In this document: one piece after another, positions 3,146 to 28,933 of the stretch | Layout: every line of letters starts with the position of its first letter | Numbering within the stretch: the stretch's first letter is position 1 | DNA from: an uncultured Acidimicrobiia bacterium | GTDB lineage: Bacteria > Acidobacteriota > Terriglobia > Versatilivoradales > Versatilivoraceae | DNA: 64,000 nucleotides | Reading direction: 5' to 3' | Assembly: GCA_963786955.1 (NCBI GenBank) | Contig: CAWBAT010000004.1 | Span: forward strand, 192,001 to 256,000 | Notes under the pieces: model-generated | What the model was told of the DNA's origin: nothing | What the model saw: the letters and a program-made list of their open reading frames with translations, nothing else | Database searches by the model: none | Program-made: the position numbers and the translations under genes

Positions 3146-4160
3146 TCATACACTACCACAGCCCGCGGGAAAATTGTAAGTGTACCTAACTGCCGAATCC
3201 GGTGGGGCAAAACCCAAGTGTCTCGAGGGCTGGGACGGCTCCCCCCGCAAAGGGAGACGCACGTGAGTCCAGTTCTTTTGCTCGATGTGAGCATTGTCAT
3301 CTTTCTTGTAAGGACGGCCACGAGTGAATTGGATCTCGAGGGCCTGACAATAGCGATAGAGATGAGCATTGATAAATTCCGAGCCGTTGTCGGAGTCAAT
3401 GCCCAGCAGTTTAAACGGTAACGCTTGACGGATGGTTTCCATGGCGCAACGAACTCCTTCTTGCCCTTTGCCTAGCACGGCACGCGTCTCGACCCAGGTG
3501 GTGTGGATGTCGGTGAGGTTCAGCGAATGACAGCAGTCGCCGGAGGCAGAGCTGCCGGCATGCGAGACCAGATCGACTTCGGTGAAGCCGGGTTGGTGAA
3601 CGTCCCAGTTGTCGGTCTTGATGGGAATGTGATGCTTTAACAACGTGCCCGGTTTGGTCCGGCCGTAGATCCTTTTTTTGAGTTGGCGCTTTTTGGGGCG
3701 GAGCCGATAATCGATGGTGCGGGGACTGAGGCAGAGCAGTTGCTGTTCCAGCCGGGGCGTCAAGTGAAAACGCTTCCGAGCCCAGGGCATCCACACCGGC
3801 AGCAGCGCCTTTAGACGGACCGACCAGGGATAGCCGGCCGCTTCCCAGATGGCACTGAGCACCGAGATTACCTGAGGCCCATAGCTCGCACGCCGTTTGC
3901 GGCGCCGCGGTGGCGACGGCCTGGGCGGAGGACCGTTGAGCAAGCGAATGGCGTATTTGCGATGGTACCCACAATTGAGGCAGAACTCGTCGAGGATTGA
4001 TTGCTTCGATCTCGACGACGCGGTGGAATATCTGTGATGAATCTTTCTCAAGTATTCCCATCTTGACTGTCGACTCATGATGTAACCCCTTTCAATTAGG
4101 GTTACATCTTAATTTGCGCGACGATCATCCTCAGAGTTACATTTTAGCTTGCGCGATTGA
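3146..4160 (-). mobile_element. 3'-truncated DDE (integrase-core) insertion sequence, ISNCY-like; transposase ORF 4078-3146
   Basis: HRKYAIRLL, GIDSDNGSEFIN, FTRGRPYKKDDNAHIEQKNWTHVR; similarity appears to stop at about 3257; tandem 21-bp repeats at 4101-4121 and 4136-4156. Confidence 0.85.
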
Positions 4161-6649: not shown

Positions 6650-7277
6650 TTGATATTGGAGACCATTCCCGTAGGCCCTTTACAGTGCAATTGCTATATT
6701 CTGGGTTGTGAGCAAACCCGGGAAGCTTTGCTGATTGATCCAGGCGAAGACGCCGATTTGATCTTGCCGGTCCTGGAAAAACATCAGCTCAAAGTGAAGT
6801 ACATCCTCACTACTCATGCCCACATTGATCATGTCGGCGATTTGGAAGCAGTCCGTTCTAAAACAGGAGCTGAAGCTCTATTGCATGAAAAAGATCTCTT
6901 GCTCTACGAAAATCTTCCGATACAAGCCGCCTGGTTAGGGGTCGAGACCCCGCCAACCATTAAGATCGATAACTTCATACACGATAAAGATCAGCTCCAC
7001 TTCGGCCGGCACACAGGAGAAATCCTCTTCACACCGGGCCATACCCAGGGCAGCGTTTGTTTATACCTTACCCGAACAAACGGGAAAGCTGTTCGCAGGA
7101 GATACCTTGTTCAAGCACAGCATCGGCCGGACAGATCTCTGGGGTGGCTCTTACGAATCCATTATTCAATCCATTCATGAAAAGCTGCTGACACTCGATG
7201 ACAGCACAGTCGTCTATCCAGGCCATGGGCCCACTACCACGATCGGTGAAGAAAAGAAACACAACCCCTTCTTATGA
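6650..7277 (+). CDS. MBL-fold metallo-hydrolase (glyoxalase II/YcbL-like), one frameshift near 7068
   Basis: THAHIDH and TPGHT, then in the shifted frame LFAGDTLF...GRTDL...VYPGHGPTTTIGEEKKHNPFL; TGA 7275-7277. Confidence 0.88.
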
Positions 7278-7659
7278 AATTCATCTCCTCGATAGAATAA
7301 AAAGATTTCCTATATTTTTTGATTCTGACAGGCGTGAACGCCTGTCGCTGGAGTTTGGACATTTATGAAGCGGCAGGAGGCCGCTTCCTCCTTCGAGAGC
7401 CCCATCGGGGCGTTGGATTCTAGCCCAGGGCGCCGCCAGCGGCAGGAGCCGCTGCGGCCGCCCTGGGTCAGCGTTCTCACGAGTTCCTACCCTCTCCCCC
7501 AACACCCTTTCCGTGTTGGGGGAGAGGGCGAGGGTGAGGGGGTCAGAAGCTGTCGACGTCGAAGTCTCACGCTTCGTTCCGACAAACACTGCAACCACAA
7601 CGAAACGCATGATTCAGGATTTGGCAACGAATGCCCCCCACTCCCATCCTTATAGTCGG

Positions 7660-7980
7660 TACAACAGGGTTGCCCGAGGATGAGTATATGAATAGCCGTC
7701 GTAGCGTTTCTTTCTTTTTTGCCTCTTTTTTCTTTCTTTGTGGAAGCTGTGGATTTTGTGCAAAAGCCATGAAGGCCAACAGAACCATACCCCTCGTTGA
7801 GGGAATTGGGATTAAATGGAGGGGTTGTCACCCGCCATCCTCCCGTTACGAACAAACCACCCGATCGTGCGACGATCAGGGAGAGACTTTCGAACGGGAG
7901 GGGGCTGGAGCTGAAACGCATTCTCAGAGGCTGCCCCGAGAGGACTCCCCTATAAGGGTTGCGCGGGCCCCAGCTGGCGA
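7660..7980 (+). ncRNA. Putative IS110 bridge RNA in the left non-coding end (boundaries approximate)
   Basis: Stem 7840-47/7893-7900 encloses gggagag (7879-85, reverse complement of the right target); ctcagagg (7923-30) and ctataag (7950-56) match the donor junction. Confidence 0.7.
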
Positions 7981-8015
7981 GGTTCCTTCTCTTTATCCTA
8001 GAACGGGAGGAGATC

Positions 8016-9294
8016 ATGAGTTCTGATTCTGAAATTGCTGCCTTCATTGGTTTAGATTGGGCCGACCAACAACATGTCATTTGTCTGCGGGCGGCCGGCT
8101 CTGGTCAGGTCGAATCTCTAGTGGTGGACCAAAAACCGGAAAGCCTGCAAGCTTGGATCCAGCAATTGCGACTGCGATTTGGGGGCCGCCCGGTAGCCAT
8201 CATCCTGGAGCAATCGCGGGGCGCCTTGTTGTATGCCCTGATGGACGTGGACTTCTTGCGGCTCTATCCGAGTCAACCCTCTAACCTTGGCCAAGTTTCG
8301 CAAAGCCCTCTATCCCAGTGGCGCCAAGGATGATCCCACCGATGCCGCGCTCTTGCTGGAACTGCTGGAGAAGCATCGGGAGCGCCTCCGCGTTTGGGTT
8401 CCCGACGACCCCGACACCCGCTGCCTGCGCCTGCTCAGCGAAGCGCGACGCAAGCTGGTCAACCAGAAGACCGCTCTGACCAACGAGGTCACCAGCCTGT
8501 TGAAAGGCTATTTCCCTCAAGCCTTGTCCTGGGCGGGAGATCCCGACACCTTGCGGGCTTGCGATTTTCTGCAAAAGTGGTCCAGTCTGGATCAGCTGCG
8601 CCGGAGTTCCAGGACCACTCTGGAGAAATTTTACCGCCATCACGGTTGCCCCTCGGGCCGGTCGATCGACTCACTGCTGGAAGAAATTCGCTAGGCTCAA
8701 CCCCTGACGCGAGACCCTGCCGTCACCCGGGCCTCAGCCCTGATGGTGCAGGCCTTGATGCGCCAGGTTCGGGACCTGATCGAATCGATCTCCCAATTTA
8801 ACCAACAAATCAAAGAGCTGTTTGAAAAGCATCCCGACTACGATGTGTTCCACAGTTTCCCCGGGGCCGGGCCGGCTTTGGGCCCCCGCCTCCTGACTTT
8901 GTTCGGATCGGATCGGAACCGTTTTCACTTGGCCTGCGAAGTACAGCTCCTGTCGGGCATCGCCCCAGTCACCGAAAAAAGCGGCAAGTCCCATCGGGTC
9001 CATTGGCGGTGGGCTTGTCCGAAATTCTTGCGCCAAAGCGTCCAGGAATTCTCGGAACAGTCGATTCGCCGTTCCCTGTGGGCGCGGACCTGCTATGACT
9101 GCCTCCGCGCGGCCGGCAAGTCTCATCACGCGGCCCTGCGCGCCCTGGGCTACAAATGGCTTCGGATCATGTTCCGCTGTTGGAAGGAGCATACACCTTA
9201 CGACGAACAATATTACCTGGCTACCTTGCGGCATCGTGGGTCTCCCCTGGGAGAAGCATTGTCCCTCACAACCACGGAGTCCATTTGTGAATAA
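8016..9294 (+). pseudogene. IS110 DEDD recombinase, frameshift near 8270 and in-frame TAG at 8692-8694
   Basis: GLDWAD, ILEQS, KDDPTDA and SGIAPVTEKSGK motifs spread over three ORF pieces. Confidence 0.9.
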
Positions 9295-9860
9295 ATTGTC
9301 ATTTTCCTGTGCAAATAATAGTTGACTTATCACCTCAGAGGTCTCTCCCCCCGAATCGCCGAAAGGCGAGCCATTCGGGGGGAGAGGAGATAATATTGGT
9401 TGAAATGCTGACCCAGGGCGGCGTGAGGAGCTCTTGCTCCTCGCTGGCCCTGGGCTAGAATTCTATCGCCCTTACAGGGCACTCAGGGGAAGCAGCGGCA
9501 TCCTGCCGCTGCACTTCTCGAAAAATTCCAATATCCAGAGACAGGCGTGGATGCCTGTCGCTACTGAGGCTATCCATTTCTCGCCCTTAACGGGGCTTCA
9601 AGTGGAAGCTATTTTACTCTTGAGTGAGACGAGCTCTTGAAAGAATAAATAACGAAAATCGACGTCCATTGGTTGTCATACAAAATCACATTCGAACGGT
9701 GACAATCTGAAATCCCCTCCGCTGGAGGGGTGTAGGGGTGGGTTCGTCAATGATGAACTGATATTTGCGTTCAGTTGCGGCTAGTTTTTTGGTGAGGAGT
9801 CAAATTTTTTCCCCGTGCTCCTCGTGGTTAATTTTCCTTCAAGAAGTAGCCCCCAGCATG

Positions 9861-10778
9861 TTACAGGATTTCCTCAATCGCTTTCTGGATGACACTTTCA
9901 TCCTGGTAGTTGACAAAATGACTGCGGATGATCCCCTGTTTATCAACCAGGAATATTGTCGGGAAAAGCTGTACTCCGCCATAATTGGATTGGATTTCTG
10001 TCGTGAGATGAGCAACGGGGAAATTGACTTTGTGCCCTTCTAGGTAGGCTTTCCGATCGGAATCTTTGTAATCGAGTTCCAAGACATGATCCGCATTAAA
10101 TCCAACGACTGTGAAATCCCGATTTTGGAATCTTTTCTCCAAGGAAACCAGGTGCGGTGTAATTTGGGCACAGGGCGGACAGTTCGTAAACCAAAAATAG
10201 ATGAGATACGGCTTGCCTTTCAGTTCGCTGGAACTGATGGCACGCCCATCAAGCAACTGAGCGGTGAACGGGGGAGCAACTTTCCCTTCCCAGCCCGCGA
10301 TGCTCCGTTCGATGAGTTTGTTAAAACGGGGATCCGCCTGAATCTTTTCAATATTGACTCTCGTGATCTCTCCGCTCTTTGGATCCCGGGTGATGAACTT
10401 CGGGACCCGCGGATCGGATTCCAGTATCTTTAGAATCAAATCTGCTTCACCTTCCACTTTCAGATTGAACTGCTGCGAAAGCTCCATAAGCGTAGGAGGC
10501 CTCTTGGCGTTTTGGTAATACTGCGAAACAAAGATGGGAACTTTGAAGAAAATATTGTAAAGACGGTCAATCACCTTGCGTTCCGCGGGCGTGGTAAACA
10601 CTTCGTTATAAAGTTCGGAAACGATGACGGGTTTGCCGCTTTGGACGAGGCCTCTCAGTTGCGTCACGACTCGCGTTTCGACGTCAGGGCTGTCTTGAGG
10701 AAGACTCAGCATTGAGCAAGCGAGCAGGTAGAGAAAGACCATTGATGCTGGAAGTGATTTCAAGAAAAATGATTTCAT
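9861..10778 (-). CDS. Exported TlpA/ResA-like thiol-disulfide oxidoreductase with an unknown N-terminal domain
   Basis: FWFTNCPPC and FPTIFLVDKQG; signal peptide. Confidence 0.85.
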   Translation of the reverse strand: MKSFFLKSLPASMVFLYLLACSMLSLPQDSPDVETRVVTQLRGLVQSGKPVIVSELYNEVFTTPAERKVIDRLYNIFFKVPIFVSQYYQNAKRPPTLMELSQQFNLKVEGEADLILKILESDPRVPKFITRDPKSGEITRVNIEKIQADPRFNKLIERSIAGWEGKVAPPFTAQLLDGRAISSSELKGKPYLIYFWFTNCPPCAQITPHLVSLEKRFQNRDFTVVGFNADHVLELDYKDSDRKAYLEGHKVNFPVAHLTTEIQSNYGGVQLFPTIFLVDKQGIIRSHFVNYQDESVIQKAIEEIL

Positions 10779-26588: not shown

Positions 26589-27433
26589 GTTGGAAGAAAA
26601 CTTCAATTTAGGGCATTTTGACGGCCTGCAATTACAGTGCACTCTCAGGCTTCCGCAGCCGAAAGGAAAACATCGGCTTGTCCTCGTTGCCCCCGGCTTT
26701 CTGGGATTTAAGGATTGGGGATTTTTCCCCTATCTTTGCCAGCAGCTTTGTCTTTCGGGATTTGCCACGCTCTCGTTTACCCATGCGCTCGCCGGCATCC
26801 GCGAGAATCCCTATGAAATCACTGACCTGGAAATTTTCTCCAATAACTCAACGACTCAAGAACTCAATGACTGGGAATTAGTCCTCGACGCCATTCTTGG
26901 CCAGCGTTTTCCATATTCCCAATATTTACAAGTGAATGCCTTTGGCGTGATGGGTCACAGTCGCGGAGGCAGTTACGGAATCCTGATGGCTCGAAAAACG
27001 CCACAAATCCAGTCGGTCGTGACCTGGGGGGGAATTGCAACCTTTCAACGGTACGATCGAGACACGCAAAAGCGGTGGCGCGCGCAAGGTCGACTTGAGG
27101 TCGGCAAGACTTTTTCGGGCAAATCCATTGAGCTGAAGGTCAAAGCGTTGGACGCTTTGGACCGCAACTACGACCGGCTCGATGTGGAGCGGGCAATTCG
27201 AGAGTTAGCGATTCCGGTACTGCTTTTACATGGTCGCGAGGACAAAAGAGTGTGTTGGAAAGAGTCGCAAAAACTTTGGGAGCGTTCGCTGCGTGAATCT
27301 GTCTCAATTTCACATCATTGAGGCAGCCGGTCACACCTTCAGAACGCAACATCCCTTCAAATCCTCCTCACAACCTCTCGCCGAAGCTGTGAATAGAACG
27401 ATCCGCTGGTTCGAGAAAACACTTCACGCCTAG
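26589..27433 (+). CDS. Alpha/beta hydrolase, frameshift near 27290; start uncertain
   Basis: GFLGFKDWGFFP, GHSRGG, LHGRED, then IEAAGHTF in the shifted frame. Confidence 0.8.
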
Positions 27434-27643
27434 GATAGAAGAATTTGCTGGCGCAGAGTTACACTATAAGATTGTGGGTCTTCCAAATGGATGTTACCGA
27501 AAAACTGTCAACGGGGAAAAAATATACAAGTATTCTGCCGATTCCGGTGAAACGCGCGCTCCGTCGCGCGTTCATCGAGCGTGCGCGGGAGCGCCCGCTC
27601 CACCATCCGGAAACAGTTCCGTAGGCCGCGTTCCCAGGCGGAC

Positions 27644-28933
27644 CTATTCTTCAAACACTCGCAGTAAGTCTGAAGCTTTCACGACTCCTACGATCTTCCC
27701 ACCATTTTGAGTGACGATCAGGAAATTCTTGTTGCCGGCCAGCATCTTCTGAATCGCTTCGGACACCGAGGCCGTTTGCTCCACCGTCATAACGCTCGTT
27801 TCCATGATTTCCGCAACACGCCGGCTGAGGCGCGCGGCGATTGGCAAAGAAGCGACATGAGCTTCGGCCGCTTCGAAATTCAGGAAGCGATGGTTGATAT
27901 AAGAAAAGAACTCGGTCGTCGAGATCTTCGATTTCCAAATCGTCATCGGCATGAGCGGTTTCCCTTCAATGAAGGCCACATAGCAATCCAATAGGGTTTG
28001 CTTGGTTTTCTTGTCAATGGAAAGCAAATAGCGCAAGGAGCTATCTGGCACCATGTCGACTTTCTTTTCTGGAATCGTACTTAAATAAATCAGACGATGA
28101 ACATCCTCCAAACTGGTATTCAAACCTTTCCAATTTTGTCCGATCATTTGGGATAAGAGGTTATCCTGGTCAGAATATTTCGGGACATACTTCTCCAGGG
28201 TGTCAATGGCATCTGCCAGAAAGACCCCCAGGGCCACATCGCGATCAAAAAGCATGCCAGCACTAACAATCGCGGCGTCGTCAGAGTGACCAGGGCCGAG
28301 CCGGTCGCGGATGTAAAAGTAACGAACGAATTCCGACTCCTGATAATTGCACTTTTCCGGAGGAACAATCATTCCGATGTCCTCGTAATTTTCAATCTCG
28401 TCGGCATGCGGTTCGTGGGCCAATTTTTCACCATCTAGATTGAGATGCTTCATGAGACGCAGGTCTACAAAATGGCAGCGCCCTCCTCCAATCTTAATGT
28501 TGTATTCTTTCTCGACGTCTTTTCGAATCTCACTGTCGTCCCGCAACCCTCCAAGGTACAACCCCTTGAGTATGGATTCCGGATTGACGCTGAGGTTCTT
28601 GAACCGGCCTGCTCTGAGAAAGGGCTGCCCTTCCCCATTCGCCAATCGCGTTGCCGCTTTTCCTTCAATGGCCTGCTGGGCATAGCGAACGATCTCGTCA
28701 ATCAACGCTTGCCGGTAGGCCTTCACCTGTTCCGGGTCATTTTGGAGCGCCGTGACGATGTCGGATATCGTAATATTCACAAAACGCCGCTTATGAAACA
28801 TGCTAGCGCCATTATGGGCATGTCCTTCGATGGACTGCATGAGGATGGCGTCCTCGGATTCTTTAGAAACGTCCAATTCCGAAGTCTTGGAAAGGTGATC
28901 AAAATCCTGCTGTACGAGTTCTTCAAAGTCCAC
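27644..28933 (-). CDS. Hypothetical protein with a single C-terminal CBS domain
   Basis: VAEIMETSVMTVEQTASVSEAIQKM...KIVGVVKASDLL; N-terminal ~360 aa not recognised. Confidence 0.8.
   Translation of the reverse strand: MDFEELVQQDFDHLSKTSELDVSKESEDAILMQSIEGHAHNGASMFHKRRFVNITISDIVTALQNDPEQVKAYRQALIDEIVRYAQQAIEGKAATRLANGEGQPFLRAGRFKNLSVNPESILKGLYLGGLRDDSEIRKDVEKEYNIKIGGGRCHFVDLRLMKHLNLDGEKLAHEPHADEIENYEDIGMIVPPEKCNYQESEFVRYFYIRDRLGPGHSDDAAIVSAGMLFDRDVALGVFLADAIDTLEKYVPKYSDQDNLLSQMIGQNWKGLNTSLEDVHRLIYLSTIPEKKVDMVPDSSLRYLLSIDKKTKQTLLDCYVAFIEGKPLMPMTIWKSKISTTEFFSYINHRFLNFEAAEAHVASLPIAARLSRRVAEIMETSVMTVEQTASVSEAIQKMLAGNKNFLIVTQNGGKIVGVVKASDLLRVFEE

Follow-up and report, generated by a model that had tools for sequence, protein, structure and literature searches.

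Does the left end of the insertion sequence at positions 7651-9344 of a 64,000-nucleotide (nt) stretch of an uncultured bacterial genome (contig CAWBAT010000004.1 of assembly GCA_963786955.1, positions 192,001 to 256,000; the whole stretch is called the window below) encode a bridge RNA that reads both the target DNA and the element's own ends? An earlier note on this DNA, made from its letters alone, had read the locus in this way and had pointed to candidate guides, to a promoter formed on circularisation and to a damaged recombinase gene. The analyses described here indicate that the window holds an IS110 element whose left end very probably encodes such an RNA, reading the target and the element's own ends by the mechanism proposed below.

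Boundaries, fold and guides of the element

The assembly searched (9 contigs, 5.65 Mb, 51.5% G+C) holds three copies of an IS110-group insertion sequence, and the interval is one of them; the sibling copies, one on contig C3 and the other on C4 outside the window, are 99% and 98% identical to the window copy, and the element ends at the same bases in all three. Each copy starts with TATAGTCGG and finishes with CCTCAGAGGTCT, with CT on either side (7649-50 and 9343-44 in the window copy). An empty site on contig C7, an uninterrupted copy of the window's flanking repeat (CCCATCCTCTCCCCC, CCATCCTCTCCC, CCACTCCCATCCTCTCCCCCGAATCG), holds one CT, indicating that one CT was duplicated, or served for exchange, on insertion and that the boundaries drawn in the earlier note, with a CT core at both ends, were exact. 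Terminal inverted repeats are absent, the short CT core lies on both sides of the three copies, and the left end is non-coding over 365 nt (7651-8015), as had been noted, versus 50 nt for the right end; these are traits of the IS110 group. Elements of the IS1111 group, including those with seekRNAs, share the recombinase family and RNA-guided targeting; in them, however, the RNA lies in a long right end and subterminal inverted repeats of 7-17 bp are present (PMC11208160), whereas here the right end is short and the RNA module lies in the left end.

The recombinase gene begins with the ATG at 8016, not at 8017, and its product has both domains expected of the group. The DEDD RuvC-like domain (PF01548) was detected at 3.5e-27 on the uninterrupted 312 amino acids (aa) of a sibling copy, while the window copy's own 84-aa first piece gave 7e-4, below the cut-off; the C-terminal domain with its conserved serine (PF02371) was detected at 6.9e-9. 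In the window copy, EKSGKS aligned with YESGSS of IS621 (the SG serine motif), and the aligned serine is presumably the catalytic one. The C-terminal fragment aligned to the IS621 transposase 8wt6 (E 5e-5) and to ISCro4 (3e-4), and a phmmer search with the N-terminal 312 aa returned no match in the PDB. Another IS110-type gene, sharing about 67% identity with the window open reading frame (ORF) over 970 nt, was observed at C8:261,387-262,356 (L004).

Relatives were collected with two scans. A protein-based scan of genome contigs yielded seven loci (44-61% identity) in metagenome-assembled genomes of Acidimicrobiia and Terriglobia, with left ends of the same layout; scanning metagenome contigs with an 18-letter donor-loop motif was far richer and gave at least 120 stretches. 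Among the matches listed, on which all figures for relatives rest, 127 were oriented, including the window and five genome loci, and the target-loop anchors ACGAA...TTCGA were found in 108-109 of these; the other 18-19 were discarded as unrelated or truncated. The clade comprises at least 100 distinct members from soil and sediment metagenomes, and the module alignment holds 100 distinct sequences.

Covariation across this alignment reveals a fold with two internal loops. The outer stem of the target loop has 14 pairs, 12 of them with compensatory changes, and 96% of its cells are paired; it includes the words CTCCCGTT (7840-47) and AACGGGAG (7893-7900), and it encloses a hairpin with arms GATCGT (7863-68) and ACGATC (7872-77), so that the closing stem and inner hairpin described in the earlier note are borne out by covariation in about 100 relatives. 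RNAalifold predicted 23 pairs from the 100 sequences, 16 with compensatory changes. In a five-helix structure of 34 pairs, 90.5% of cells were paired versus 76.1% in shuffles, compensatory changes occurred in 27 pairs, and none of 500 shuffles attained any of five measures; sliding the partners by one to three columns lowered pairing to 28-44%. Single-sequence folding of the left end was no better than in shuffles (z -0.51 for 365 nt, -1.58 for 201 nt); because these energies are unexceptional, the support for the fold comes from covariation and not from energy. Column pair 41/63 of the five-helix structure was unpaired in 82 of the 100 rows and was rejected as a pair, and a closing stem around both loops (CACGC/GCGUG in relatives), seen by eye, failed the 80%-paired screen of alignment A1. 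The earlier note had spoken of a longer bridge RNA; the two-loop module itself (about 7838-7974, 137 nt) is of ordinary size, and the extra length is that of a 5' leader of about 180 nt, which may be part of the RNA.

The two sides of the target loop follow the two sides of the insertion site. The 9 nt before the inner hairpin matched each relative's own left target at 7.19 of 9 positions (77 non-redundant pairs), compared with 5.02 +/- 0.12 in permuted pairs and a maximum of 5.43 in 2000 permutations; the 7 nt ending 3 nt before TTCGA matched the complement of core and right target at 6.35 of 7 positions (62 pairs), compared with 4.01 +/- 0.14 when permuted. A scan of about 95 offsets gave two strong peaks only, one per loop side: at +3 and +4 after ACGAA for the left guide (z 12.4 and 7.0) and at -10 before TTCGA for the right guide (z 16.4), with |z| <= 5.8 at all others. 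Loop 1 guides therefore covary with the left target in the same sense and with the right target as its complement, in agreement with the covariation across homologues that the earlier note had named as the check on its reading. In the window, GGGAGAG (7879-85) is the reverse complement of CTCTCCC (9343-49), the right guide and target that the earlier note had paired and that the z 16.4 peak now supports, and it fits the right flanks of all three copies; the left guide reads ..ACCACCC (7856-62). The earlier note had left the left guide ambiguous between CCATCCT (7835-41) and CCACCC (7857-62). From the covariation in the sequences, the left target guide is CCACCC, predicted to specify CCACC-CT-CTCCC.

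The three copies lie at ccatc-CT-ctccc (window), tcacc-CT-ctccc and ccacc-CT-ctccc, and the window site, ccatcCTctccc, has one mismatch to the guide-specified sequence. At all three sites CT+CTCCC forms the 5' foot of a hairpin, with GGGAGAG as the opposite arm. A fourth site, found in contigs of run X2, reads TTCCACC|CT to the left and CTCTCCC|ACAAGGGGAGAGGG to the right, and two perfect CCACCCTCTCCC sites are unoccupied in the genome, one of which (C6:776140) is paralogous to the flanks of one copy. A second clade member in the same genome (C4:~27,115-28,890, L005), about 65% identical, has the guides CUUGCCCU and AGCCCAG and is inserted at a different site, TGCC-CT-GGGCT, which fits its own guides.

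The donor loop matches the element's own ends. As the earlier note had claimed, CTCAGAGG occurs at both 7923-30 and 9334-41, and CTATAAG (7950-56) is the reverse complement of CTTATAG (7649-55). Family right ends have the form TTGACA-N6-CTCAGATG-T-CT and left ends start with TATAG; relatives carry CUCAGAUG in both the RNA and the right end. In L043 (..GATA/..GAUA) and in the window (..GAGG) the 8-mer is changed in RNA and right end alike, and these paired changes indicate that the donor 8-mer tracks the right end. Loop 2 guides thus match the element's ends, with little variation in a set recruited by the donor-loop motif; CUAUAAG was fixed by that motif, and its conservation in the metagenome set is uninformative. 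When the left end was shuffled 20,000 times, the three guide words arose singly in 0.6%, 1.9% and 3.1% of shuffles and together in none.

Neither left guide spans the core. The left donor guide ends 1 nt before it, and the RNA bases that follow the 8-mer in relatives (UUG, UCG, CUG, AUG) rarely extend the match into T-CT; the left target guide usually ends on the core C, the next base being the first of the inner hairpin. The earlier note had observed that the left donor guide stops short of the core, and this is true here and in the clade, and also of the left target guide. Left guides that stop at or before the core T are, to judge from the aligned sequences, a clade-wide trait, and core coverage by left guides is treated here as a trait of IS621 and not as a defining feature of bridge RNAs.

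A circular form of the element would place TTGACT (9322-27), 17 nt (9328-44) and TATAGT (7651-56) in a row; this arrangement, predicted in the earlier note, is present in the window and conserved in relatives. Left ends of relatives begin with TATAGT (39) or TATAGG (26). At least five of six matches to TTGACA lie exactly 17 nt before the end in 41 of 45 relatives; right ends were located by the guide 8-mer alone, and 45 of the 49 members with at least 1600 nt downstream gave one. A promoter scan found no sigma-70-like promoter inside the linear element, and scanning the left end for intrinsic terminators gave none on its sense strand. Positions 7818-8318 are matched at 96% identity by a single RNA-library contig, which lacks the extra G of the window's recombinase gene, comes from a relative and may be DNA carry-over; the X20 RNA-library contigs cover only the mirror repeat of the leader, with other flanks, and are likewise from relatives.

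Transcription, binding by the protein and catalysis are inferred from these sequences, on the model of IS621. The element would excise as a circle, in which the right end would supply the -35 box TTGACT and the left end the -10 box TATAGT, 17 nt apart. Transcription would then run into the left end and produce a bridge RNA containing two internal loops. Its target loop (7838-7902) would carry the two target guides, and its donor loop (7904-7974) would carry CUCAGAGG, matching the right end, and CUAUAAG, complementary to the left-end CT+TATAG. The RNA would bring the circle junction together with a CCACC-CT-CTCCC site for the DEDD/serine recombinase, that site being the 5' foot of a hairpin like that of repetitive extragenic palindromes (REP-like), and exchange would take place at the CT core.

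The proposed system resembles that of IS621 from Escherichia coli, whose bridge RNA is about 177 nt long (PMC11208160). Like IS621 (PMC11208160; 8wt6), the element has a DEDD and serine recombinase, a CT core and REP-like targets, and its left end encodes the RNA, behind a promoter that is restored when the circle closes (here predicted from sequence); both RNAs have two internal loops, each split by an inner hairpin, in which the 5' side has top-strand sense and the 3' side is complementary to core and right arm. Unlike IS621, the protein is distant, with only its C-terminal fragment matching 8wt6, the left end has 365 nt where the IS621 RNA has about 177 nt, the left guides reach no further than the core C, and a leader of about 180 nt with a mirror repeat precedes the loops. 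According to the accessible part of a report on ISPpu10 of Pseudomonas putida, the target hairpin is part of the recognised site and imperfect guide pairing is tolerated (10.64898/2026.03.19.712850); to that extent the present element shares with ISPpu10 the IS110 group, insertion at REP hairpins, a junction promoter (here predicted) and imperfect guide pairing, but the hairpin of ISPpu10 involves the left target side, whereas here core and right target form the 5' hairpin arm.

IS110 elements with a bridge RNA are an already known kind, and the guide and fold results leave the known picture of them unchanged; what is added is a new member, which belongs to a large and mostly intact clade that the supplementary tables of predicted bridge RNAs and targets of Durrant et al. 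2024 (PMC11208160) may already include. The locus represents a well-delimited natural bridge-RNA system with four directly readable guides, and its clade offers many natural guide-target pairs. When IS621 rules are carried to distant orthologues, it is useful to know that a left guide may end before the core T.

Evidence against a working bridge RNA and competing explanations

Several observations weigh against the interpretation given above. The relatives were recruited by the donor-loop motif, which fixed the donor side by construction and confined the comparison to one clade. Core coverage of the IS621 type is absent, with right guides that cover CT and left guides that both fail to pair with the core T, and the element's own sites fit the left guide at only 5-6 of 9 positions, low for a family with a mean of 7.19. 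The inner donor stem has a C-A mismatch in the window copy, a position that is a non-pair in 4 of 100 rows. An Rfam search of 7000-10000 (E <= 1) gave no bridge-RNA match, although Rfam 15 is perhaps without such a model; its matches were chance-level ones of miRNA or lncRNA type only (E 0.19-0.88). The public runs, represented by assembled contigs only, showed neither a circle junction nor where an RNA starts or ends or how abundant it is, and the parts that the contigs leave uncovered are uninformative. Lastly, the ORFs of all three genomic copies are broken in the assembly.

Two alternative explanations concern the guides themselves. If CCAUCCU (7835-41), 5' of the target loop, were the left target guide, the element would be tuned exactly to the ccatcCTctccc repeat, and this word indeed matches the left target of the window copy at seven of seven positions where CCACCC has one mismatch; however, 7838-41 lies inside the outer stem that covaries in 100 relatives, no guide-target signal was seen at the corresponding offset of -18 (|z| < 3), and the siblings, the fourth site from run X2 and the two empty perfect sites all read (C/T)CACC-CT and fit CCACCC. 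A chance 7-mer match anywhere in the 365 nt is also expected in roughly 2-3% of shuffles. This assignment is very improbable, and of the two candidates left open in the earlier note CCACCC stands, by its covariation peak, while CCATCCT, which lies in a stem and gives no signal, does not. The other explanation dispenses with a bridge RNA altogether and takes the internal copies of the end sequences as DNA sites for the recombinase (subterminal repeats), which would be compatible with donor words conserved at the DNA level and with contigs of public runs in which a transcript was not demonstrated. DNA sites of this kind would not account for loop words that track the flanking target, which lies outside the element, nor for surrounding stems that hold their pairing through 27 compensatory pairs and so point to selection for a folded single strand, and we consider it extremely improbable that they explain the left end.

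The bridge-RNA interpretation is compatible with two states of the window copy, an element with at least one active copy, its lesions being assembly errors, or a decaying relic in which the RNA is a fossil, and to our judgement the chances of the latter are about even. As assembled, the window copy is unable to supply recombinase: compared with its siblings it has one more G at 8270 and a C>T change at 8692 that creates a TAG. The breakage reported in the earlier note is thus present in the assembly (extra G at 8270 and TAG at 8692-94), with neither lesion appearing in the short-read contigs compared. Each of the three copies has lesions of its own, the C3 copy having lost 1 nt near 8954 and the other C4 copy having several indels; both siblings have 1-nt losses in the mirror repeat, one has a loss in the guide run CCACCC, and the recombinase is broken in 6 of the 72 relatives with enough sequence, all of which is consistent with decay. 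Conversely, the X1 and X2 contigs, from two sediment runs, have C and not T at 8692, the sole X1 contig that spans 8270 is without the extra G, another X1 contig is intact at the sibling's lesion near 8954, and copies that are 98-99% identical suggest recent spread; the X1 and X2 contigs possibly derive from the siblings, and rare variants are lost from contigs, so that the window lesions are neither confirmed nor refuted by them. In the other 66 of the 72 relatives the recombinase is intact, with an open frame of 390-458 aa. A naturally intact clade member, the element at L038, has the right guide of the window copy.

A mirror-repeat cassette in the leader

The only unexpected feature of the element is a cassette within the approximately 180 nt between the -10 box and the loops, a region in which relatives have a covarying 5' hairpin that is poorly formed in the window. 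In the cassette (7694-7765; also in L019, L022, L026, L038 and others), NGY triplets are followed by a pyrimidine mirror repeat and this by TGTGGAAA-type words at +9 and +17. Relatives have AGTAGTAGCAGC or CGTCGTCGCGG at the NGY stretch. The mirror repeat is present in 58 of the 91 relatives with a complete 5' region, and in 55 of these 58 the arms are perfectly mirrored over 11-18 nt in several designs (T3CT3CT5, T3CT3CT6, T5CT6, T5CT5 and T4CT5CT6) around a 5-nt GSYYC spacer, the inner T-run being 5/5 or 6/6 in both spacer classes. A perfect TGTGNAWAA lies at +13 to +17 in 26 of 50 distinct relatives, and most others have TGTGGAAAT or TGTGGGAAA.

Mirror symmetry that persists through changes of the arms is a signature of a pyrimidine-purine-pyrimidine triplex and, as read from the sequences, would be hard to explain except by a three-stranded structure. 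An intramolecular RNA triplex was rejected, as a purine partner on the sense strand is found in only 3 of 58 members and is absent in the window; the lack of such a partner on the same strand points to duplex DNA (H-DNA) or to RNA on DNA. The same 31-mer occurs on five IMG/VR contigs without a bridge RNA (L145-L150) in similar flanks, in one case about 60 nt beyond an IS21-type istA/istB pair, and in a genomic repeat of about 790 nt (C6:~975,800, C3:~362,350 and C8:289,858-290,408), beside an ORF with a weak rve match; the window has a 303-nt piece of this repeat, without the tract, at 3253-3555. Occurrences without a bridge RNA indicate that the cassette is portable and is not tied to this kind of RNA.

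The words beside the repeat recall those of the host's dnaA-dnaN spacer (L151 2500-2745; C5:~1,127,090-1,127,325), which has the boxes TTTTCCACA, TGTGGATAA and TTTTCCACA, the last followed after 15 nt by CTACTATTACTA and AT-rich DNA; by its sequence the spacer looks like the unwinding system of the chromosome origin. No cluster of at least four relaxed DnaA boxes within 600 bp was found anywhere in the genome. A reading of the NGY triplets as a DnaA-trio was rejected, since it fits the TAGTAGTAG subgroup only and most members have CGT/CGC, not NAN. As far as the accessible parts of the sources go, the cassette is like H-DNA mirror repeats and origin unwinding elements (PMC11667243, PMC8287927) in having a perfect pyrimidine mirror repeat with few C and a 5-nt spacer, flanked by TGTGGAAAA-type words as in origin unwinding elements; unlike in origin unwinding systems, the 33-nt repeat and a further 17 nt lie between its box and its trio-like triplets, and the trio search program, in the part of its description available, allowed a box-trio spacer of up to 16 bp (PMC8287927). 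A literature search, with supplements outside it, found no paper linking such a mirror motif to IS110 elements; the text of PMC11208160 has no mention of pyrimidine, U-rich or T-rich, and that of 10.1101/2024.06.21.599552 has none of these nor of mirror. One possible, though rather unlikely, explanation is that circle-forming insertion sequences (IS110, possibly IS21-like) recruited the cassette as a portable module, triplex-forming (H-DNA) or DnaA-linked and with an unwinding or insulating role; it would couple expression of bridge RNA and recombinase, or melting of the donor site, to the supercoiled circle or to the replication state of the host.

Coordinates and surroundings of the element

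Table 1. Positions of the element, its predicted RNA parts and its target in the window
Feature	Position	Strand	Remark
Left target CCATC + core CT in flanking repeat	7644-7650	+	C7 empty site, sibling sites
IS110-group insertion sequence	7651-9344	+	1694 bp counting one CT copy at right end
TATAGT, predicted -10 half of junction promoter, also right donor arm	7651-7656	+	
Triplet-periodic NGY stretch AGCCGTCGTAGCG	7694-7706	+	Directly 5' of mirror repeat; 12 left ends aligned
Pyrimidine mirror repeat TTTCTTTCTTTTTT-GCCTC-TTTTTTCTTTCTTT	7707-7739	+	
Weaker TGTGG words	7739-47, 7748-56	+	
DnaA-box-like TGTGCAAAA (TGTGNAWAA)	7757-7765	+	17 nt after mirror repeat
Target-binding loop, outer stem 5' strand	7838-7852	+	Pairs with 7889-7902, A7848 bulged
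Target loop 5' side with left target guide CCACCC (7857-62)	7853-7862	+	Top-strand sense, predicted to end on core C
Target-loop inner hairpin GAUCGU-GCG-ACGAUC	7863-7877	+	Five of six pairs with compensatory changes
Right target guide GGGAGAG	7879-7885	+	Reverse complement of core CT + CTCCC
Target-binding loop, outer stem 3' strand	7889-7902	+	Covariation
Donor-binding arm	7904-7974	+	Basal GCUGG 7904-08/CCAGC 7970-74; mid CGCA 7917-20/UGCG 7960-63; inner 7933-36/7942-45
Left donor guide CUCAGAGG	7923-7930	+	Identical to right-end bases 9334-41
Right donor guide CUAUAAG	7950-7956	+	Reverse complement of CT+TATAG
Recombinase gene, DEDD RuvC-like and serine domains	8016-9294	+	Broken by extra G at 8270 and TAG at 8692-94
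TTGACT, predicted -35 half of junction promoter	9322-9327	+	17 nt before element end
Left donor CTCAGAGG-T + core CT	9334-9344	+	
Right target CTCCC, with core the 5' arm of a long REP-like hairpin (CTCTCCCCCCGAATCGCC...GGCGAGCCATTCGGGGGGAGAGG)	9345-9387	+	

Surrounding the element is a composite repeat that spans 200 bp or more and contains several hairpins (window 7400-7650 and 9345-9470; loci L006-L013); further copies of this repeat were located on C5 (twice), C6 and C7. Variants of this repeat diverge exactly at the left-target word, which reads CCATCCT, CCGCCCT, CCAACCT or CCGTCCT, and in one copy (L010, C5:~181,650-182,180) the loop of the long hairpin is interrupted after GAATCGCCGAAAGGC by a different insertion, about 500 bp long. 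The second clade member (L005) has a different, REP-like target word, which is found again around 7420-7470 in the repeat that flanks the window copy. The upstream neighbour, at 6650-7180, is an ORF with the HxHxDH-type motif THAHIDHVGD, which we take to be typical of metallo-beta-lactamase-fold hydrolases.

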